DNA from: a virus
Taxonomy: Duplodnaviria; Caudoviricetes
Virus record (IMG/VR): IMGVR_UViG_3300028837_001657
Span: 1 to 53,105 of that record
Direction: 5' to 3' (one strand)
Length of the DNA stretch: 53,105 nt
Shown here: piece by piece, positions 293-46,178 of the stretch
Layout of the letters: each line of letters begins with the position of its first letter
Position numbering within the stretch: the first letter of the stretch is position 1
Translations under genes and position numbers: made by a program
The notes under the pieces: model-generated
The model's database searches: none
Told to the model about the DNA's origin: nothing
The model's input: only the letters and a program-made list of their open reading frames with translations

Positions 293-814
293 ATGAAAGG
301 ATCAGTTACGGTAGTCAGGGATGGGCCAGGGCCGGGTGTGATCGCCGGCAAGCGCCTGCTCCCCGGTCATTCTATCACGACATCCCGGGCACAGTTCGAC
401 CGCGCGCAAGCGAACAGTCCGGGATTCCGCATTGTAGGAGATCCCCAGGAAGAAGCACAAGCACGAGTTGAGGCCCCGCCCGAAGCAGAAGCACCCGTTG
501 AGGCCCCGCCCGAAGTAGAAGCACCAGTCGAGGTCCCGCCCGAAGTAGAAGCACCAGTCGAGGCCCCGCCCGAAGTAGAAGCACCAGTCGAGGCCCCGCC
601 CGAAGTGCCGGCCCAACCGGAACCGAAACCGAAGCCGAAGCCGAAGCCGAAAAGGGAAAGGCGCAGGACGACAAGGCGCAAGAAGAAAGAAGAACCCGTC
701 GCAGAGGCAGTCGAGTCCGAACCCCCAGAAGGCAGCGAGAACGCCGACAGTGACGGAGAGTGGGGTCCGGCCCTCGAAGACGTGTTCGCAGGCGAGGACA
801 GCGAGGACACGTAA
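293..814 (+). CDS. Low-complexity Pro/Glu-rich phage protein in the head module
   Basis: GGAGG RBS before ATG 293; EAPPEVEAPV tandem repeats, a PK run, a basic patch and an acidic tail. Confidence 0.7.
   Translation: MKGSVTVVRDGPGPGVIAGKRLLPGHSITTSRAQFDRAQANSPGFRIVGDPQEEAQARVEAPPEAEAPVEAPPEVEAPVEVPPEVEAPVEAPPEVEAPVEAPPEVPAQPEPKPKPKPKPKRERRRTTRRKKKEEPVAEAVESEPPEGSENADSDGEWGPALEDVFAGEDSEDT
467..606 (+). repeat. 30-bp in-frame tandem repeat, about 4.7 copies
   Basis: GTYGAGGCCCCGCCCGAAGYAGAAGCACCM repeated, encoding VEAPPE(A/V)EAP. Confidence 0.95.
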
Positions 815-29599: not shown

Positions 29600-32500
29600 G
29601 CACTATAACCGTCGTAGTTAAGCCAAGTGCACCGCAAGTCGGAGGGGCGTTGAGTGTCGTCGCCAAAAGCGCCGATGCCTTGACCAACGTCAAACTCAAT
29701 GTGCACGATCCGACCGGTGCCCTTGTCGGGCGCACGGCCGTCACTGTCGGGCGAGACGGCAGTGATTACATGTGGAGTTGGACAACTGACCCACTTGCCT
29801 TGCAAGGAGACCACGTCGTGGCCGTGACCACCTCGGCAACTAACGCCACAGTGACGGTGATGGTTGGAGATCCACAGGCAACTATCCACAGCAAGCTCGG
29901 CCCGCACATCATCAAAGACGAGCACGCGGGGTACTTGCTGGCTGGCCCGGCAGTAGCAAAGTATGTTGGAGAGTGGGGGAGTGCAGTGCACTACGCACTC
30001 GCTAATACCTTAGTCATTGGGCGTCTCCACAGTGAGGCCTATGATGCACAGTGGCATGTTGCACAAGGCATGTCACCTCAGCAAGCGGCAGAAATGTTCG
30101 TGCCTGATCAACTCGGCACCTACATGTCCAATGAGCACATTCTCTACTGGGAGGGGCACAATGAGCCAATCTGGAACACAGCAGAAGAGATGGCCTGGTA
30201 CGCGGAGTTTGAGATAGCACGCATGCAACTGATGGCAAACATCGGCTTGCGCTGCGTGATCGGTAACTTTGCCACCGGAACACCGGCCTTGTCACTGTGG
30301 CCTGCATTCTTACCGGCGATTGAAGCGGGATTAGAACACAAGGCTATTCTTGGCCTGCATGAGTACAGTTGCCCATGGATGTGGTGGATGACGGGCAGTT
30401 ATCAACTAGATCCGGCAGACGATCAAGGAGACGAGGGGTGGACGACGTTGCGCTACCGAAAGGCTTACAGGCAACATCTGATTCCCGCTGGCCTCGGTCA
30501 TATTCCCTTGGCGATCACAGAGGCCGGGATCGACTCGTTAGTCAGGCCACTTCCGCCTGGAGCACCTGGGGCGGCCTGGAGCGATCTGGGGGATTACTGG
30601 CGAGACCACGACAGAGAACCAGATGCGGCAGATTACTATTTCCAACAGTTGGTGTGGTATGATCAAGAACTGCAAAACGATGAGTATGTAGTAGGTGCGA
30701 CAGTTTTTTGCTTCGGCAACTACGGGGCGCCTTGGTCTGCCTTCGACGTGGCGGGCACAGCAGTTGCCGACAAGCTGACCGCCTATGCACAGGCGTACCC
30801 GGGCAAACCGTTTGTGTATCCTACCGACAAAGTGTCAGGGCGTGGCGATCCTCGCACGCCTTACAAGCGTACTTATGTCCTCTTACCTCCCGGTGCCGAC
30901 AAAGACTGGGCAGTGGCAGCCATCGAGGGCAGTTGGAGACAAGGGCAGACGGTCGGCGGAAGCGCCGACGATGCGGGGATCGGGGACTTGCCCGACAAGA
31001 CCGCCCGCGTCATCAATCCGGCTGAATGGACCAACGGAGACATCGCAAATTTCTACGGGACGCACTACCCGAACACGGGCATCGAGCCTTTAGTGGCGAA
31101 CACGCCTGCAGAACTCAAGGCGGCACTACAAGGCCAAGCGACTGCGGAGTATCCTTGGCACAGGGATGTCACGGCCGCACTGCCACAACGGACTGACTAT
31201 GAGGCATGGTCGGGAACGTCACTAGAAAATGGATGGGGAACGCGCACCCTTGCAGAGATCGACGACATCTGCATCCATCATACGGCAGGACTGGCAGAGG
31301 CCATCGGAGCTGATGTCGGGGCCAGTGATTTCTATAACCTGGTGCACTGGTACGTGTGGAGCAAAACGTGGACATCAGACCTTCACACCTACACCGGCCA
31401 TCCCTCCGGACCTTACAGCATCGTGATCGACACCGTAGGAACCGTGCTTCTGGCAAACGACCTGACGGTAGCGTGCTGGCACAACCAACGTGGGGCAAGC
31501 CTGTCCTTGTCCATTGGTCTTTTGTGTGATGCAGTGAATGGTCTGCCCACGGAGGCCCAACTTGACGCCTTGGCCGGCGTGTGCGTCTGGGCGATCCAAT
31601 CGGATGTACTGCCAACCATTACCTCTATCGACCAGATCACAGGACACCTCGACTGGTTTGCGACAGAGTGCCCCGGCTGGACGGACAGTGCGGGCCACGA
31701 CCGGTGGAAAAGGGCGTTGCTCGAAAAGATCAGTGTGCAACTCGGAGAACCTTTGCCAGGGAATGGACCAACGCCAACTACAGCATCTCCGGTCTTAGGT
31801 ATTCACGACTGGCCGGGCAATGCGGAAGGCGGTTCGGCTATTCGCTGGCTGGCTGATCAAGGTTTGGCGGGTACGGTCTACGTGCCGCTCTACGTGGGCA
31901 CAGGTGTGAGCGGGTTGAACTTGCAAGGCTATGCTGATCAGGGCTTCAAGATTTACTACAACTTGAGATTCTCGTACTCAACTGACAAGGGAGGTGCGGG
32001 GACGTTGCCGCCGGAGAACGAGCTTGACGACTTCGTGGAGGCGTGCCTGGGGACGATGCGCGCCAGCACGGGCATCGCGGGCTACGCCATTGGGAATGAG
32101 TGGAACAACCCGAGGGAATCGCCGAAGAACTTTGACCTCAGCCCGACTTACGTGGCTGCTGTCTACAACGAAATCTGGCGACGGAAGCCGGAGGGCGCCC
32201 GCGTGAGCCTGGGGGCCGTTGATCCGTTCTTCGGGCCGGGGAGTGACTGTGGCTGGTGGTTTGACGAGGTGATGAAACAGGTCGAAGGGATGGACTTCAT
32301 CGACCTGCACGGGTACGTCAGGGGGCCGAACGCCGGCCTGGTGTGGTCAATGGAGATGTTTGGGGATGATCCCTTGCGCTGGCAGTACCTCAACTACTTT
32401 GGCTGCGTCGAGACGATGCTTCGGAGATTACCTGCACGCTTCCACGATCTGCCCGTGATCGTGAGCGAGTTCAACCACTTGTGGAAAACCAGCGAAGAGG

Positions 32501-32700
32501 TTGGGGACCTGGGGTGGGTAGACGACGAAAGGGCGACGGCAGTGCTGCACAATGCTATCGCCCGTGCCTTGGAGTGGAACGAGGCCGGCGGGCATAACCC
32601 GATCGAGGCAGTGATCGCTTACCGCTGGTCAGGCGACGAATGGGCTATAGATGGACGGGGAACCATCAAAGCATACCTGGCCGACCTGCTCCGCGAGTGA
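29596..32700 (+). CDS. Multidomain endolysin: Ig-like + glycoside hydrolase-like barrel + Amidase_2 + second GH-like barrel
   Basis: WEGHNEP/GLHEY/ITEAG; IHHTAG...CWHN...SIGL...PTEAQL..L...ITGH.D..ATECPG (zinc amidase); IGNEWN/DLHGY/VSEFN. Confidence 0.8.
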   Translation: MSTITVVVKPSAPQVGGALSVVAKSADALTNVKLNVHDPTGALVGRTAVTVGRDGSDYMWSWTTDPLALQGDHVVAVTTSATNATVTVMVGDPQATIHSKLGPHIIKDEHAGYLLAGPAVAKYVGEWGSAVHYALANTLVIGRLHSEAYDAQWHVAQGMSPQQAAEMFVPDQLGTYMSNEHILYWEGHNEPIWNTAEEMAWYAEFEIARMQLMANIGLRCVIGNFATGTPALSLWPAFLPAIEAGLEHKAILGLHEYSCPWMWWMTGSYQLDPADDQGDEGWTTLRYRKAYRQHLIPAGLGHIPLAITEAGIDSLVRPLPPGAPGAAWSDLGDYWRDHDREPDAADYYFQQLVWYDQELQNDEYVVGATVFCFGNYGAPWSAFDVAGTAVADKLTAYAQAYPGKPFVYPTDKVSGRGDPRTPYKRTYVLLPPGADKDWAVAAIEGSWRQGQTVGGSADDAGIGDLPDKTARVINPAEWTNGDIANFYGTHYPNTGIEPLVANTPAELKAALQGQATAEYPWHRDVTAALPQRTDYEAWSGTSLENGWGTRTLAEIDDICIHHTAGLAEAIGADVGASDFYNLVHWYVWSKTWTSDLHTYTGHPSGPYSIVIDTVGTVLLANDLTVACWHNQRGASLSLSIGLLCDAVNGLPTEAQLDALAGVCVWAIQSDVLPTITSIDQITGHLDWFATECPGWTDSAGHDRWKRALLEKISVQLGEPLPGNGPTPTTASPVLGIHDWPGNAEGGSAIRWLADQGLAGTVYVPLYVGTGVSGLNLQGYADQGFKIYYNLRFSYSTDKGGAGTLPPENELDDFVEACLGTMRASTGIAGYAIGNEWNNPRESPKNFDLSPTYVAAVYNEIWRRKPEGARVSLGAVDPFFGPGSDCGWWFDEVMKQVEGMDFIDLHGYVRGPNAGLVWSMEMFGDDPLRWQYLNYFGCVETMLRRLPARFHDLPVIVSEFNHLWKTSEEVGDLGWVDDERATAVLHNAIARALEWNEAGGHNPIEAVIAYRWSGDEWAIDGRGTIKAYLADLLRE

Positions 32701-32705
32701 CAAAC

Positions 32706-32738
32706 AAAAAAAAGCCCCCGCCTCGAGGCGAGGGGCTT
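32706..32738 (-). terminator. Intrinsic terminator at the convergence of the two transcription blocks
   Basis: On the - strand, hairpin AGCCCCTCGCC-TCGA-GGCGGGGGCT runs into a T8 tract; lies 40 nt past the RAMP gene stop. Confidence 0.8.
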
Positions 32739-32779
32739 AGTACCGGCAAGTCGGAGTGTTCAGCGAGGAATTGTCGAGG

Positions 32780-33391
32780 TTACCCGTTCTCGTCCCTGGC
32801 AACTTGGAACATGCCCTTGTTGCCACTCTTCTCAGGTCTCCAGTCACCGATGCCCACATGGAACCCAGCGATTTCCAGTAGTCGGGCAATGTCGTCAGCG
32901 GAGATGACTGTGGGGTTGAATAGTACGTCGAACGTGATTGACCATGGGGGCGAGAATTCCGCACGATAACGCAGGTCGGCCACACCACGCCCGATCACGA
33001 CCACGTCTTCGCGCATGTGAGGCTCGCTGTCTTCGATGGGCAACACGCCGCCCAAGACGTAGAACGCTCCGCGTGCGCTGGTCATGGTCATGTCAGGAAC
33101 AAAGCGGCAGGCCCCCACACAGGCGGCCTTGATTCCGTCCGCGATGAATCCCGGCCGACCGTCTTCGGTCATATACATTGAAGCCTTGTACTCTATTTCC
33201 GGAGTGCGTACCGGTCGTCCTACAGTCGTGTCCTTCTTCTGCTGCTTATCCCGTATCCTCTTGATCTTGTCAGGATCAAACCTGTTGCAGAGCAACGGAC
33301 TTAACCCTGTGATCGTGATCGTCATCCGTTCTTTCTGGATCTGCGGGATCATCACTGTCTTTGCTACTGGTGTTCCTTTTGCTTTTGTCAT
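32780..33391 (-). CDS. Stand-alone RAMP/Cas7-like RNA-binding protein (Vipr-like)
   Basis: N-terminal strand ITITGLSPLL, PGFIADGIKAAC (cf. RAMP P.IP.SS.KG), RYRAEF..W, and C-terminal Gly-rich loop GIGDWRPEKSGNKGMF; AGGAG RBS; adjacent to the repeat array. Confidence 0.75.
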   Translation of the reverse strand: MTKAKGTPVAKTVMIPQIQKERMTITITGLSPLLCNRFDPDKIKRIRDKQQKKDTTVGRPVRTPEIEYKASMYMTEDGRPGFIADGIKAACVGACRFVPDMTMTSARGAFYVLGGVLPIEDSEPHMREDVVVIGRGVADLRYRAEFSPPWSITFDVLFNPTVISADDIARLLEIAGFHVGIGDWRPEKSGNKGMFQVARDENG

Positions 33392-33427
33392 GTCTCCTGT
33401 CCGCCTTTCTATAGCTGTGTGTTCTTC

Positions 33428-33911
33428 GCCTTACCTTGCCTAACCCTGCCACACCGCACTGTGCCGGACCCAGCCTTGCCTTGTCACGCCTGGCCCTACC
33501 GAGCCGCGTCTGATAATGACGGTCCGCGCCTTGCCGTGCCTAGACCCGCCCAGCCCTGCCTAACCACGCCGTGCCTCGGCACTGTGTCAGATGAAGGCGG
33601 TCCTCGCCTTGCCAGGTCACGCCTTGCCGTGCCCTGCCCGGCCTAGCGATACCTAGCCGTGTCAGATAATGGCGATCCGCGCCTTGCCTTACCTTACCAG
33701 GCCGCACCATACCATACCCCGCTCTGCCAAGCCACGACAATTCGCCTCGCCTTGCCTCGCCAGGCCTTACCTCACCACGCCCTGCCCGACCCTGCCAAAC
33801 CCTACCCTTCCGTGCAGTGCCATGCCGCGTCAGATGATAGCAGGCCTCACCTTGCCTTGCCTCACCTCGCTGGGCCTAACCGCACCATGCCATGCAATGC
33901 CATGCCGCGTC
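33428..33911 (-). ncRNA. Array of six GGY-NN pentamer units with conserved linkers (candidate guide-RNA array)
   Basis: 5-nt periodicity, RCC-NN on + (NN-GGY on -); units at 33428-33510, 33528-33588, 33606-33663, 33681-33738, 33749-33831 and 33849-33911; four 17-nt linkers plus one 10-nt linker. Confidence 0.85.
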
Positions 33912-34389
33912 AATCTGCAATCATGTCAATCGCTGCGATCACCGCAGCAAATTCTTCGTAGGTGGCATACTTCTTGCGCCAAGCAAGCAATTGCCGATGG
34001 GCATCTTCAAGAACCTGCGCGCGCAAGGCATCTTCATTCATAGCTTTGGCGACGAGGACATAAGCCTTCACAGGCTCATCGTCTGCACGTTTCAAGGTGA
34101 CGTGCTGGAAAGCCCGCACGGTCACGACTTCACTGCAGTCCGCGGCCGTCACCACGACGTGGATTGATCGGAGAATGTAACTGGCTTGCTCAAGCCGCCA
34201 TTTCTCCGCTGCCGTTTCGTCGTCCCACTCAAACCCGTCATGCAATGGAGATCGCTTTGATCGCGCATCTTTGACGACTTGAGCAGGAGTAATGCTGCCG
34301 TCACTGCGCACGATCAGACGCGTGATGCGGTCTCCATACTTTTGTGCTTGTTTTCGCGTTAGTGTCGATCCGTCGGCAGGTATGTACAA
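33910..34389 (-). CDS. Conserved phage protein immediately upstream of the array
   Basis: G.ITP..VV..AR...SPLH..FEWDD..AAEKWRL.QA..I.RSI motif; its TGA overlaps the first base of the array. Confidence 0.75.
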   Translation of the reverse strand: MYIPADGSTLTRKQAQKYGDRITRLIVRSDGSITPAQVVKDARSKRSPLHDGFEWDDETAAEKWRLEQASYILRSIHVVVTAADCSEVVTVRAFQHVTLKRADDEPVKAYVLVAKAMNEDALRAQVLEDAHRQLLAWRKKYATYEEFAAVIAAIDMIAD

Positions 34390-34401
34390 GCATCTCCTTT
34401 G

Positions 34402-34593
34402 TTACTCGACGAAGGCGAGTAACGCTGCTGCGCGCCTTATCAGAAGATCCACAGTTGCCTCCGCCCATTTCTCGAACGTGGGGGGGGGGCTTTCAGTAAG
34501 CTGCTCGCGAAGCTGCTCCGCTTCGTTCGTGGGAACGGTGAGCAACACGCGCCATCTCTTCTTGTTCCATCTGCACTCTTGTAGTGCTTTCAC
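34402..34593 (-). CDS. Hypothetical protein
   Basis: GTGA coupling to the upstream gene; fills the operon gap. Confidence 0.5.
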   Translation of the reverse strand: MKALQECRWNKKRWRVLLTVPTNEAEQLREQLTESPPPTFEKWAEATVDLLIRRAAALLAFVE

Positions 34594-35138
34594 ATCGACA
34601 TGACATAGTACGGTCCATGTACGCCGCTGCTGAATTGTCCCGCGATGTGCAACGCCTCTAGGATACGCTCCTTAGGCGGTAAGTCACACTCGTCGTCCAG
34701 GGCAGCCATCGCCCCGAGAGCATACTCGCGCCCGCATCCAATAGCTGCTAGGCCCCCTCGATCATTGTAGGCTGTGACCTGGAAGTCATCGTGGATGTGG
34801 TACGCCTGGCTGCGATAGCCTGCCAAGAAAAACCCGCCTTCTTCGCGATTGTCCTCAACCTTTGTGAACCCGCCTTCCTTCAAGCACGTGCGGACAGCAG
34901 GGATAAAAGTGGCGACGAGATAGGCATGATCCTTCACGCCGTCTACGTGCTCAGGGATGGTCAAGTCAAACCGGAGCAGTTGCGCCATCCGGATGCTTCC
35001 TGTACAGCCGAGTAAGAAAGGGCCGTTGCGGAATACTTTTGTCGCCGCCATCTGCCGGATGCTCCAACCTGAGAGGACAGCGGAATCGCTACCCATCCAT
35101 ACCTTGCCACTGTCGGGCAGGGCAATGATGCAAGTCAT
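34590..35138 (-). CDS. HslV/proteasome-beta-like Ntn peptidase
   Basis: MTCII...V.MGSDS...KVF...G.TGS.R...AIGCG..YALGAM; Thr2 in the nucleophile position. Confidence 0.8.
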   Translation of the reverse strand: MTCIIALPDSGKVWMGSDSAVLSGWSIRQMAATKVFRNGPFLLGCTGSIRMAQLLRFDLTIPEHVDGVKDHAYLVATFIPAVRTCLKEGGFTKVEDNREEGGFFLAGYRSQAYHIHDDFQVTAYNDRGGLAAIGCGREYALGAMAALDDECDLPPKERILEALHIAGQFSSGVHGPYYVMSM

Positions 35139-36232
35139 CGTGAATTCCTCTGAACAAGTTCAGTCGTTCTAAGCGCCGCATTTAACACAGTCAAGAGCGG
35201 AGCGTCGAATCTTGTCCTCTTCCCTTCTGCGTACACAAAGAACTCTCCGGAGGCCAGCCGCTCTGCGGCTGTACTGAACGTAACCTCACTGAGGTCGCAG
35301 GCATTCTGCGCATCCGGTGTTTTACCAAGGATGCGCACAAGGAACCCCCAAGCCGAAAAGAGCCCGACGCATGGAGGTTTTCTTTCTACCGTGGCGACGA
35401 CGTGCACTCCTACAGCAGGGCCGTGCGTCGTGATATACGAAAAGATAGGCGCCAGGTTGCCAGACTGCTCGAAAACGTCTTCGAGGCCGTCCACGATAAA
35501 CAGCAAGGTAACAAAGGCATCGGGCTGGGGTTTCATTTCACGCTCTATGACAAGACGGGCTACCGCGCGCACCGATCTTTCTACCTTGCAAGCATGCACA
35601 TCAACAGGTGCGGTCATAAGGTGCGGGACGGAATCTGACCAGCCCCACTCTTCTCGCGGCGCGATGATCAACATGCGCAACGCAGCCGGCGATTCGCTCA
35701 ATGCAAGAGACATCACCAGGCAGCGCAGTAGATTTGTCTTTCCGGCTCCGGCCTCTCCACTGATCAGAACGTTCTTGACATCCTCAGAGGGCAGCCGCAC
35801 TAAAAGCGGCGTCCCGTCTTCAGCCAACCCGATCATCCCTGTAAGACGCGGGGGCCTTCTTGCCTGCCTTGGGGGATTTAGCAGAGCAGCAGCAAGATGA
35901 GGGAGCCCTGGCAGTGTGATCACATCATCGTACTGGTACAACTGCTCGTACAACTGCCCGAACTGTAAAGGTGCCACGTTGACGCGGAGAGCCACGACTG
36001 CCACTCTTGCGCCCCGCCGCTCTACGCGACATTCCATCCTTAGCGCGCTCGTTAGCGTGTCAATCAACGCAGGAGTAATAAGGATGGTGTCTCCGCTGAG
36101 ACGAGGGAATACGTCGAAGCGCACCCACCTGTGTGTTCTCTGCCCTCCTGAAATTCTTACACGGATGCCCTGACTTGCGAAAGCGGTCTCTACCCTGTCT
36201 GCTTGAAACTCCAACTCTGTTCTGATAGTCAT
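35135..36232 (-). CDS. FtsK/SpoIIIE-like ATPase (degenerate Walker B)
   Basis: IG...DG.P...L, NVLISGEAGAGKT, LFIVDGL.D, G..VGVHVVAT and L..GEF motifs. Confidence 0.75.
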   Translation of the reverse strand: MTIRTELEFQADRVETAFASQGIRVRISGGQRTHRWVRFDVFPRLSGDTILITPALIDTLTSALRMECRVERRGARVAVVALRVNVAPLQFGQLYEQLYQYDDVITLPGLPHLAAALLNPPRQARRPPRLTGMIGLAEDGTPLLVRLPSEDVKNVLISGEAGAGKTNLLRCLVMSLALSESPAALRMLIIAPREEWGWSDSVPHLMTAPVDVHACKVERSVRAVARLVIEREMKPQPDAFVTLLFIVDGLEDVFEQSGNLAPIFSYITTHGPAVGVHVVATVERKPPCVGLFSAWGFLVRILGKTPDAQNACDLSEVTFSTAAERLASGEFFVYAEGKRTRFDAPLLTVLNAALRTTELVQRNSR

Positions 36233-41411: not shown

Positions 41412-42794
41412 TTACCAAACATCTTCCGTCAACCGCGTCGGCTTCGGCGGTACCGGGACGTGTACGTTAGTCGGATCAGGATCACTGTCCGCCACTCTGC
41501 AAACGCACCAGCCGTTCGTGTTGAGCCAGGTGATTGCGTCTCGTCCCATGTCTCGCAACCGGCCGACACGATCAGTACCGATGGGGCCAAGTTCGGCCTC
41601 TCTCAGTCGTGTTAACAAAGCGTCGCGCCCTTCTCGCGGGTTCAAGCTGGCTGCCAGCATACTGGCTCCTAGCTGGTCCCCTGTAAAAGGTTTGCGGCCA
41701 CCGTTGGCCGGGAGATCTTGCCCTATGTCTTCTGCCTCAAACTCCGGCCAACGCTGAAAGCGCCAGCTATAGCCGTTGCTCGCTTTGTCGAAATCTGTTC
41801 GGTCGACCCAGGCAACCTGGACGCGATGGAAGCAGCCCGGCCCGATTGCATAGCCGTCGCCTGAACCGCCCAAAAAGTCTGCCCTCGGCCAACTGGCACT
41901 CCCGGTCACCACGCGTGACGCAGCGTGATCAACGACCTGCAGGGCGATCCTCCCCGTCAAGTTGCGCGGAACAGAAGGGTCACCGAATGCCTTTGTGGTG
42001 GGGTGTTGTGTCGTGATAAACACGTGCACCCCACGACTTCGCCCTTGTGCGGCTAATAGGCGCAGCATGTCAGCGATGGCGCTATCTTGGATGATTTCTT
42101 GGATTTCATCTACGGCCACGATCAGCCGGCCGCTCCAGCTATTACTCTCTCCCCGCTGCCGCATCACTTGGACAGCGTAGGCCAGTGCTCCCCGGATGTC
42201 GGGACCTTCCGTCGCCACTGGGCCAAGCACGCCTGGCAAATGCTGCAGCAGACGCAAGGATTCACCTTGCTTTCCGTCGACCAAGATCAACTCATTGTCG
42301 GGGTCCTGGCAGAGTTGGAACAAGATGAGTTGAAGCGCCTTGCTCTTCCCGCTGCCGGAGGTGCCTGCCAGTAAGAAGTGAGGGGTCCTGTCGGATAGCC
42401 CCCCTATCACCACTGGACCCGTTTCGGCCTCACCGATAATGAACTGGCCTTTGCCGGGCTTACGCTCGTCCAGGTCAGTCAGGCGGATCATCGTCCGTGC
42501 CCATTCGCGCGGCCAAGCGCACTCGCATCGAATGAAGCGATCTGTCATGTAGATCAACGGTCTGTCTACCGTCCAAGGCACGAATGGGCGCAGAGCTGCA
42601 CAGTTGTACCGTTTCAGCGCACTGATCAATATGCCTGCTCCCAGGCCTGCGGGATGCAGCAATAAGACACCCGCCCTCGGGCCATCTATCAGGTATACCT
42701 TCTTGATAGGGCAGCTAACTTTGGTGAACTGGCCTTCACCTGCGGCGCGGGCCAGATTTACTGCCCACTCTTCTAACAGCTTAAGCTTGTCCAT
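41412..42794 (-). CDS. FtsK/SpoIIIE-like ATPase
   Basis: PHFLLAGTSGSGKS, LVDGK, VAVDEIQ, GRSRGVHVFITTQHP, RIAL.V and A..L.G.GDG motifs. Confidence 0.88.
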   Translation of the reverse strand: MDKLKLLEEWAVNLARAAGEGQFTKVSCPIKKVYLIDGPRAGVLLLHPAGLGAGILISALKRYNCAALRPFVPWTVDRPLIYMTDRFIRCECAWPREWARTMIRLTDLDERKPGKGQFIIGEAETGPVVIGGLSDRTPHFLLAGTSGSGKSKALQLILFQLCQDPDNELILVDGKQGESLRLLQHLPGVLGPVATEGPDIRGALAYAVQVMRQRGESNSWSGRLIVAVDEIQEIIQDSAIADMLRLLAAQGRSRGVHVFITTQHPTTKAFGDPSVPRNLTGRIALQVVDHAASRVVTGSASWPRADFLGGSGDGYAIGPGCFHRVQVAWVDRTDFDKASNGYSWRFQRWPEFEAEDIGQDLPANGGRKPFTGDQLGASMLAASLNPREGRDALLTRLREAELGPIGTDRVGRLRDMGRDAITWLNTNGWCVCRVADSDPDPTNVHVPVPPKPTRLTEDVW

Positions 42795-44752: not shown

Positions 44753-45264
44753 TGCGCCTGCGCCTGCGCCTCCGCCACCATCCGGTCAATTCGCATTTCA
44801 TTCCATACATGCATGGCAACGCCCACGGCGTCTGCTTCGTGCTCCGTGATCGTCTCCTTGCCCAAGAATTGCGCGACAACCTTTGCGACACCTTTGTGCC
44901 ATCCGCTGGCTTTGACTTTCATGGCGTTGACGCGACGTAGATCGGTCACGCCGGCCAGGTGAGCCAGGACTAACGGCGTCCACATAGCGGCGCCCAGTAT
45001 CCTATCGGTCAAAGCGTTGCCGTGTGAACCGGTGGGCTCTTCAGCCGCTACGACGGTAAAATCGGCCAGAGTAGCCGGATGTCCGTCTATCTCAAACGGC
45101 AGTGGTCTTCGCATCCAGTTGGCAATGAGCAGCATGCGAACCCACCCGCTGTCGCCTTTCGGTGAGTAGGCTCCGCTGGCGATCACCGTGCCTTCAACGA
45201 TGGCACAGTAACCCACATCCGAAGAGGACGCATCGAACCCCAAGATGCGCAAGGGCTTTGGCAT
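44749..45264 (-). CDS. RuvC-like Holliday junction resolvase
   Basis: ILGFDASS..VGY, VAAEE, VK and EHEADAVGVA motifs. Confidence 0.8.
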   Translation of the reverse strand: MPKPLRILGFDASSSDVGYCAIVEGTVIASGAYSPKGDSGWVRMLLIANWMRRPLPFEIDGHPATLADFTVVAAEEPTGSHGNALTDRILGAAMWTPLVLAHLAGVTDLRRVNAMKVKASGWHKGVAKVVAQFLGKETITEHEADAVGVAMHVWNEMRIDRMVAEAQAQAQ

Positions 45265-46178
45265 CAGAACATCCTCACTTGCCTGGGTACCAGGTCAATC
45301 TCAGGGCGGTCGTCGTGCACTACCCCGTCCAGGATGCGGCCAGATTGTGACCGCCCTACACGGTACGATCGAGTGCCGTCTTGCCACGTATGGCACGCGA
45401 ACTGCCTGAGTGCTTCCGTGCTCGCCTGGTAGCCCATCATGCCCGAAAGCTGCGACTGATGCAGCCAATCCCCATGCGCTTTGTAGTGAAACGAGAGTCC
45501 ATGATCATGGCACCAATCTCGCGCTGCTCGCACCCAGTCAATGTGCCACGGCCGTGCACCAGGTCCAGTTTCGCCTCCGGCCAGGATTCCGCCCAATTGC
45601 GTCCCGCTCGACCGTTGCAGACTTGACCATTGAACGGAACCGAGTACAGGCTCATAAGAGATGACCTTAGTTACTGCCGGGATTGTCCGAAACATCGGCC
45701 CTGCCTTGGAGGCATCGGTTTGATCTGAAATGCTGACGCCAAGCCAAGTGTTGGTCGGCCAGCCACCGCGCCAGCCGAACGGGACCAAAGCAGTCCAGTT
45801 GTGCGGCCGCTTGGTCAAAAGGAGCCAGGCCATGCAAGCCGTCTCTTCAATCAGTGTCCACAAGCGAGCACGGGCTTCTTGCATAGCCTGATGCACTGCC
45901 GCGTCTGGGTGGATTTCGAAGATGTCGCACATACTCCCGCAGAGAACCAAGGCGTTTTTGCCCGTCTTGACCGCCGCCTTCTCCCACTGTCTAGGTGCTT
46001 GCCAGTGGCCTTCTGTGAAGTCAAGACGCCGCCCGCGGTCTGCGCCCCATACGTCGTATCCGACTTCAGTGGCCCATCGCCTTGCGTAGCACCTCGCACA
46101 GCCAGACGCGATCTCCGTGCATCCCCACCAAATGTTAAAGGTATGGTCGGGGTAAGAGATCCGAGTATCCTTACCCAT
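45264..46178 (-). CDS. DUF5131 / phage Gp37-Gp68 family protein
   Basis: DHTFN.W.GC..I.SGC..CYA, SMCD.F, LLLTKRP, WLGVS, SYEP.LG, GGETGP.ARP. Confidence 0.9.
   Translation of the reverse strand: MGKDTRISYPDHTFNIWWGCTEIASGCARCYARRWATEVGYDVWGADRGRRLDFTEGHWQAPRQWEKAAVKTGKNALVLCGSMCDIFEIHPDAAVHQAMQEARARLWTLIEETACMAWLLLTKRPHNWTALVPFGWRGGWPTNTWLGVSISDQTDASKAGPMFRTIPAVTKVISYEPVLGSVQWSSLQRSSGTQLGGILAGGETGPGARPWHIDWVRAARDWCHDHGLSFHYKAHGDWLHQSQLSGMMGYQASTEALRQFACHTWQDGTRSYRVGRSQSGRILDGVVHDDRPEIDLVPRQVRMF

Follow-up and report, generated by a model that had tools for sequence, protein, structure and literature searches.

VIPR (Viral Interference Programmable Repeat) systems are phage-borne, RNA-guided systems of DNA silencing that were described in 2026 in preprints of one group (10.64898/2026.04.26.720920, 10.64898/2026.04.26.720927, 10.64898/2026.10.15.759431). 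The defining parts of a VIPR are given there as a small RAMP-lineage Vipr protein, one accessory gene (vap) in most cases, and guide RNAs (vrRNAs) of 9–16 YNNGG units followed by an invariant tail, and the published array caller accepts runs of at least four YNNGG units, typically 9–16 (10.64898/2026.04.26.720920). The vrRNAs recognize double-stranded DNA with one base skipped per unit, the outcome is transcriptional silencing, and the targets lie mostly in competing phages and satellites; the preprint covers 667 systems and distinguishes seven types (10.64898/2026.04.26.720920). Independently, 99 VIPR-like clusters of period-5 arrays have been recovered (10.64898/2026.10.21.760802). Here we describe a locus of this kind in IMG/VR virus record IMGVR_UViG_3300028837_001657, a linear record of 53,105 bases (all of which is called the window below) that comes from an uncultured tailed phage of a marine sediment metagenome and is estimated to be 72% complete. 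Judged from its sequence, the locus is very probably a genuine and complete VIPR system, and thus a member of a kind already described.

On the minus strand of the window, a 159-aa open reading frame (ORF) is followed by an intergenic stretch of 518 bp (33392–33909), a 203-aa ORF, and a terminator. This is the order given by the sequence-only reading, a model's account made without database searches, and the ORFs, a scan for pentamer tracts, and an 8-bp stem followed by T8 bear it out. Both protein motifs quoted in that account, ITITGLSPLL and GIGDWRP...G..G.F, are present in the 203-aa translation, and its statement that the window has neither cas1/cas2 nor a CRISPR array agrees with our finding of 0 matches to Cas1/Cas2 profiles and no CRISPR-like tandem array in the whole record. 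Its array length of 484 bp was not recovered, as the intergenic stretch is 518 bp long and the tracts within it span 481 bp; that the array is non-coding and built of pentamers did hold.

The relationship of the 203-aa protein to a Vipr of known structure is the first line of evidence. Against the sequences of the PDB, its only significant match was the "SUSP1 Vipr protein" (36pp_D), with an E of 4.6e-5 over the G-loop region, and a profile built from 36 family sequences again had 36pp_D as its sole PDB match, at an E of 2.2e-13, between profile positions 22–195 of 199 and chain residues 3–188 of 202. When aligned by hhalign with the SUSP1 Vipr taken from the phage record, the match was scored at 97.7% (E 1.6e-12) over 167 columns with ∼28% identity. 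The protein belongs to phrog_4652, a family of unknown function (E 1e-24), and a Pfam search returned 0 families at E values up to 0.1, with no Cas or RAMP family among them. Because the protein is homologous to the solved SUSP1 structure, it is expected to have an RRM/RAMP fold.

The residues by which SUSP1 Vipr holds the GGY bases are H17, R138, D177, W178, and R179, and its K33 contacts the target backbone (10.64898/2026.04.26.720927). In the alignment, R138 corresponds to the thumb arginine of the window protein, R143, and D177, W178, and R179 correspond to D183, W184, and R185 of its G-loop (G180-I-G-D183-W184-R185-P186), while K33 falls on K52; for the helix-1 residues E71 and M72 the two alignment methods give different placements. 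All 36 family sequences share R143 and R185, and we predict that R143, D183, W184, and R185 of the window Vipr grip GGY.

The second line of evidence is the array itself. When the window was scanned from end to end on both strands for YNNGG runs with at least six good units, six runs were found, all of them on the minus strand and all in the intergenic region between the vap-like gene and vipr (33429–33909). Of their 81 units, 80 begin with C or T, while G is found at position 4 of 75 units and at position 5 of 78; the NN positions are occupied by 16 different dinucleotides. The autocorrelation at lag 5 is 0.505, as compared to ∼0.21–0.28 at lags not divisible by 5. Only 1 of 500 dinucleotide-preserving shuffles of the array contained any run, and 20 shuffles of the entire window contained 1 run in total. 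Each of the four conserved 15-nt spacers (sequences in Table 1) is preceded by two conserved units, CAAGG YGMGG, and the stop codon TGA of the 159-aa gene (in GATTGA) abuts the first pentamer unit just as the spacer ends (ATCTGA) abut the other tracts. Between tracts 2 and 3 there is instead an 8-mer that looks like a decayed separator. Tracts 1 and 2 open near-identically with CGCGG CATGG CAYTG CAYGG (33909–33890 and 33829–33810), which suggests that the array grew by duplication of tracts and subsequent divergence of their NN positions.

Pieces of this array were also seen elsewhere in the sediment samples: a different contig (∼17–31 kb), of higher depth and present in all four sediment runs, shares stretches of 24–27 nt that lie ∼870 nt apart and map to window positions 33677–33703 and 33853–33876. 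It may carry another VIPR array of the same community.

The third line of evidence is that the linkage of protein and array extends across the family. At E values up to 1e-3 the 203-aa protein had 172 database homologues, the best of them 55% identical and none carrying a name; the 34 cultured-phage records matched (27 Mycobacterium, 5 Gordonia, 1 cyanophage, and 1 Pseudomonas) all list a "hypothetical protein." The clade of the window Vipr comprises the phrog_4652 proteins of Mycobacterium and Gordonia phages and those of ∼290 IMG/VR contigs, and the homologues in cellular genomes are scattered over many phyla, the closest being that of an uncultured Anaerolineales metagenome-assembled genome (MAG) at 47% identity. 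We surveyed 80 IMG/VR loci and two actinophage records (n = 82) and then 22 loci of bacterial genomes and SUSP1 (n = 23), 105 loci altogether. Same-strand YNNGG runs were found within 1.5 kb of the vipr homologue in 73 of the 82 (67 downstream and 7 upstream, one locus having both), and two of the nine loci with no run are cut within 150 nt of the gene. All 23 further loci had same-strand runs and none had an opposite-strand run; over the 105 loci together, there was just one opposite-strand run. That homologues should co-occur with 5-nt-periodic arrays had been set down beforehand as a check on the first account of the locus, and it was borne out in both sets. Gaps between tracts across the family (n = 209) were 4 nt long in 145 instances, 100 of which read CAGG. 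The largest array set belongs to an IMG/VR relative (L023, 4022–7127) with 32 YNNGG tracts, of which 13 lie in the 1.4 kb downstream of vipr and the other 19 at 2.0–3.1 kb after the vipr start.

Two of the relatives are cultured actinophages in whose records the array has been annotated as a gene. In Mycobacterium phage Donkeykong (L082, NC_051648.1, 2539–2823) a YNNGG array lies inside gp48, and in Gordonia phage UmaThurman (L083, NC_031249.1, 3634–3939) one lies inside gp40, both of which are annotated as hypothetical proteins; the flanking gp49 and gp39, respectively, are Vipr homologues and gp50 and gp41 are vap homologues, and all are unnamed. We consider gp48 and gp40 to be probably vrRNA arrays mis-called as coding sequences (CDS).

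The 159-aa gene, which had been listed merely as a neighbor, is indeed there but proves to be no bystander. A homologue of it stands beside vipr in 68 of the 82 loci and in 88 of 105 in the extended set, nearly always adjacent and on the same strand, and we therefore regard it as a conserved accessory (vap-like) partner; none of the 105 loci has any of five other genes that neighbor the locus in the window. The protein matches phrog_15946, of unknown function (E 2.7e-27), and its family has the conserved motif SPLHxxFEWDDxxAAxxYRLxQA. Pfam has no family for the window protein, and DUF3545 appeared in 3 of 22 family members with a best E of 9e-4; a profile search of the PDB with the family returned only SopD, at non-significant E values of 0.056 and 0.062. 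Its identification as vap1 itself was rejected for want of similarity to SUSP1 vap1.

The homology to the solved Vipr, the conservation of the RNA-contact residues, the anatomy of the array, and the family-wide linkage of vipr, vap, and same-strand arrays are matters of observation, and we assign the locus to VIPR because of the Vipr homology, the fit of its repeats to YNNGG, and the same-strand co-occurrence of arrays. The sequence-only reading had named VIPR as a match, and in this it was right. Compared with the type II VIPR of SUSP1, the window has in common a Vipr of ∼200 aa that is homologous over its full length and has both the thumb arginine and the GDWRP G-loop, YNNGG units in tandem on the same strand as vipr, and a two-gene, phage-borne locus without cas genes. 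It differs in that the Vipr proteins are only ∼28% identical and the accessory protein is unrelated to vap1. The order differs as well: the window has vap-array-vipr with six tracts in one intergenic block, whereas SUSP1 has one vrRNA, then vipr-vap1, and then three vrRNAs. By our own reading of its sequence, SUSP1 also has a TTGACA...TATACT pair before vrRNA1, whereas the window array has no promoter-like site.

Members of its own clade (e.g., Donkeykong and UmaThurman) have a Vipr 35–55% identical to that of the window, the same vap family, and same-strand YNNGG arrays. Most of these relatives are arranged vipr-vap-array with tracts 4 nt apart, in contrast to the vap-array-vipr order and 15-nt separators of the window. 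The 4-nt-gap arrays of the clade may be what figure S18 of the preprint calls the "staggered" architecture. The vap-array-vipr order of the window is common to four relatives (L034, L059, L067, and L085), but separators of the TYATCWGA kind are shared, among the 105 loci, only with L050, where they are 20 nt long and the protein is 43% identical.

According to the preprints, VIPR resembles the RAMPs of class 1 CRISPR systems (Cas7/Csm3, Cas5, and Cas6) in the RRM core, the thumb, and the glycine-rich loop, and in that each subunit covers a guide RNA step of constant length at which bases are flipped. In VIPR this step measures 5 nt with three bases sequestered, as against 6 nt with one, and the target is read with gaps. 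The window differs from class 1 CRISPR further in having no Pfam Cas/RAMP match, no repeat-spacer array, and no Cas1/Cas2 or other cas genes. The description of the 203-aa protein as a solo RAMP/Cas7-like protein can thus be kept in part: by its homology to 36pp it is a RAMP-lineage Vipr, but it is not a Cas7, and with 0 Pfam families at E up to 0.1 and no cas context we rejected it as a CRISPR-Cas RAMP. TIGR-Tas, which is mentioned beside VIPR (10.64898/2026.10.21.760802), is also a non-CRISPR, RNA-guided system with short-period arrays; however, its period is 18 nt and its effector is different (10.64898/2026.10.21.760802), and, although no further test for it was made, nothing in the window resembles it.

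A working scheme for the locus can be put together from these comparisons. Transcription would pass from the vap-like gene into the array and on into vipr, and would end at the terminator. Because no promoter-like site was found in 32500–35300 and there was no ribozyme or Rfam match (an Rfam scan returned only BcKCsr2, a chance match whose 22.9 bits fall short of the gathering score of 40, and no hammerhead ribozyme), we infer that a single transcript is processed at the separators. Cutting at the 15-nt separators, which like the co-transcription is read from the nucleotide sequence by itself, would yield up to six vrRNAs of 11–17 YNNGG units. One Vipr protomer would then occupy each pentamer, with R143 and the G-loop residues D183, W184, and R185 holding the GGY bases, and, if SUSP1 is a guide, the displayed NN would pair with double-stranded DNA in an NNx pattern, skipping one target base per unit, and the resulting Vipr filament would keep a competing mobile element from being transcribed. 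The 159-aa partner would assist in some way. A polymerizing RAMP that grips GGY, presents NN as a discontinuous guide, and acts by binding or repression had been proposed from the letters of the window before any of these comparisons; the same mechanism is set out in both VIPR preprints (10.64898/2026.04.26.720920, 10.64898/2026.04.26.720927), and for the present locus it would apply by analogy.

Several results weigh against the assignment or against parts of this scheme. The SUSP1 residue H17, which contacts G1, corresponds to N36 in the window Vipr, in a column that is H in 24 of 36 family sequences and N in 12; moreover, the RAMP fold is predicted from a solved homologue. The 159-aa protein has no detectable similarity to SUSP1 vap1 (hhalign, 0.1%). 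The separators of the window array measure 15 nt, as compared to the ∼40-nt pseudoknot tail plus leader of each SUSP1 vrRNA, and RNAalifold detected at them a weak 4-bp hairpin that is kept via G-U changes, with 0 compensatory pairs. A search of 32500–35300, the array included, detected no sigma-70-like promoter. To these are to be added the searches of sequence collections for a target of the guides.

Those searches followed the published rule, an NNx pattern with one base skipped per unit, for which the published match criterion is at least 80% of NN positions; the collection scans relied on exact seeds and covered tracts 2–6. In IMG/VR, exact 10-unit seeds of tracts 4, 5, 3, 6, and 2 had 1, 0, 0, 0, and 0 matches, respectively, and in JGI metagenomes those of tracts 6 and 2 had 0 and 0. 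The single 10-unit match (L107), with 21 of 24 positions over the full guide, was judged to be chance because it lies in an AT-rich contig of 159 kb, inside a plus-strand ORF, with its skip bases at codon position 1 and therefore out of phase. Shorter, 8-unit seeds of tracts 2 and 6 had 9 and 10 matches in IMG/VR, all of which extended at chance level (3–7 of 18 positions for tract 2 and 2–5 of 16 for tract 6). The best full-length guide scores in the collection scans were 21/24, 23/34, and 21/32. Several of the 8-unit matches of tract 6 (L121–L126, also L117 and L120) fall on a conserved (E)YLTAVGQF motif of a 645–805-aa portal-like gene, in IMG/VR contigs of 54–62% GC that vary at the skipped (wobble) positions. 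We did not accept this gene as the target of tract 6: the matches reach 19–21 of 32 overall, the remainder is at chance level, and their number equals the chance count of another seed. In 604 kb of related loci, scanned with skips of 0–2 bases, nothing exceeded the shuffled-guide null at skip 1. A natural target of the window guides may well exist.

If so, it need not be a competitor. The locus could be a genuine VIPR that serves host takeover or self-regulation, its targets lying in the host chromosome or in the gene expression of the phage itself and not in competing phages or satellites, an alternative that we consider improbable. Silencing by binding, as published, would work on any DNA, and with the seeds tried no competitor target was found in IMG/VR or the JGI metagenomes; in addition, with the host unknown and the nearest cellular relative, that of the Anaerolineales MAG, only 47% identical, host genomes are hardly searchable. 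However, a scan of the phage's own 53 kb with skips of 0–3 bases showed that, apart from the array itself at skip 3, no guide match exceeded the shuffled-guide nulls, and the guides of published VIPRs are likewise reported to be without self-targets in their systems (10.64898/2026.04.26.720920). As to the host, the one long guide searched at full length with up to 3 mismatches, tract 6, had no match in G001 or in any of 301 genomes from the class to which that MAG belongs. Among the natural targets that could be assigned in the published systems, satellites and prophages form the majority, with 18 of 20 in the case of SUSP1 and 48 of 66 in that of P. fulva (10.64898/2026.04.26.720920).

That the locus is a decaying or inactive remnant, the guides of which are no longer made or used, is less probable still, and we would be surprised if it were so. 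Its degenerate separator between tracts 2 and 3 (CGAATTGT), the 10 of 81 units that depart from YNNGG, the asparagine at the H17 position, and the failure of the scans made to find a target would all be expected of a remnant, but internally degenerate units are often found in working vrRNAs (10.64898/2026.04.26.720920). Moreover, both ORFs are intact and full length relative to their families, R143 and R185 are invariant with D183 and W184 also kept, and the locus is identical in contigs of two samples. Finally, the possibility that the pentamer region encodes a protein, or is a simple repeat devoid of function, and has no relation to the 203-aa gene is negligible in our estimation: although mechanical ORFs do cross it (100 and 124 aa on the plus strand and 66 aa on the minus strand) and the records of cultured actinophages list a hypothetical CDS at the corresponding place, its period is 5 and not 3, separators reset the register (15 nt here and 4 nt in 145 of 209 family gaps), the tracts keep to the vipr strand in 96 of 105 loci, and the SUSP1 equivalent is a sequenced, protein-bound RNA (10.64898/2026.04.26.720920).

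With the locus read as a working VIPR, one may ask whether its array follows rules of its own. The window and L050 could represent an undescribed VIPR array grammar, characterized by conserved 15–20-nt TYATC(N)TGA separators, a promoter-less vap-array-vipr operon, and the use of the vap stop as the first boundary; we regard this proposal as doubtful, albeit less so than any of the alternatives above. Were it true, maturation would be unlike that of the tail-and-pseudoknot vrRNAs of SUSP1 and of the 4-nt "CAGG" arrays of the clade, and would involve an endonuclease step that cleaves the vap-array-vipr messenger at its separators, perhaps carried out by the FEWDD-motif Vap or by Vipr. Such cleavage would also tie the production of guides to how stable the vipr messenger is.

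VIPR has been known for months and studied so far in phages of E. coli and Pseudomonas, and the same parts are found here in an unrelated phage of marine sediment, with an array that fits six guides into 481 bp. Our understanding of the VIPR mechanism is unchanged by this locus. What it adds is diversity, namely a FEWDD-motif accessory family without known fold or function, the vap-array-vipr order, and a 15-nt separator that is rare in its clade, and the distinct accessory family together with the rare separator grammar could merit the attention of specialists. The arrays that are annotated as hypothetical genes in actinophages call for a simple annotation fix, and since the hosts of these phages, Mycobacterium smegmatis and Gordonia terrae, are tractable, they offer a route to studying the clade.

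Table 1. Features of the VIPR locus and of neighboring genes on the minus strand of the window, with the locus listed in the direction of its reading
Feature	Position	Strand	Basis or remark
vap-like accessory gene, 159 aa	33910..34389	-	ORF, TTG start after AAGGAG site; phrog_15946
vrRNA tract 1: 13 units, 11 fitting YNNGG	33845..33909	-	tract scan
15-nt separator or putative 3' tail, CCTGCTATCATCTGA	33830..33844	-	
vrRNA tract 2: 17 units, 15 fitting YNNGG	33745..33829	-	tract scan
8-nt degenerate CGAATTGT between tracts 2 and 3	33737..33744	-	read from sequence
vrRNA tract 3: 12 units, 11 fitting	33677..33736	-	tract scan
15-nt separator, ATCGCCATTATCTGA	33662..33676	-	
vrRNA tract 4: 12 units, 10 fitting	33602..33661	-	tract scan
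Separator ACCGCCTTCATCTGA and 8 off-register bases CACAGTGC	33579..33601	-	
vrRNA tract 5: 11 units, 10 fitting	33524..33578	-	tract scan
15-nt separator, ACCGTCATTATCAGA	33509..33523	-	
vrRNA tract 6: 16 units, 14 fitting	33429..33508	-	tract scan
vipr leader, 37 nt, with GGAG ribosome-binding site 4-5 nt before ATG	33392..33428	-	read from sequence
vipr gene, 203 aa	32780..33391	-	ORF, ATG start; PDB 36pp_D, phrog_4652
Intrinsic terminator, 8-bp stem (7 G-C pairs) then T8	32715..32734	-	closes leftward operon
HslV-like peptidase and two FtsK/SpoIIIE-like genes	34590-35138, 35135-36232, 41412-42794	-	same leftward block

In the surrounding genome, a plus-strand lysin gene ends at 32700 and converges on the terminator of the VIPR locus, which, taken with that terminator, makes the locus the last unit of the leftward gene block. 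The rightward block of the phage holds portal, tape-measure, and lysin genes, and the best match of the portal protein to a cultured phage is that of Virus Rctr41k at 37.5%. The DNA contigs that carry the locus, from four runs of one sediment study, are identical and show no variants.

Directly upstream of the VIPR locus there is an HslV-family peptidase-like gene (phrog_1040), and two genes for FtsK/SpoIIIE-like ATPases share the leftward block with it; these neighbors were VIPR-linked in 0 of 105 other loci. Farther away in the same record, a DUF5131 protein is encoded on the minus strand at 45264–46178 (Pfam E 8e-53; phrog_2045); proteins of this kind are common in phages and have no known function. 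A 30-nt tandem repeat close to the left end (window 452–606) is present in 5.2 copies that are 93% matching, and it probably codes for a repeated decapeptide within an ORF.

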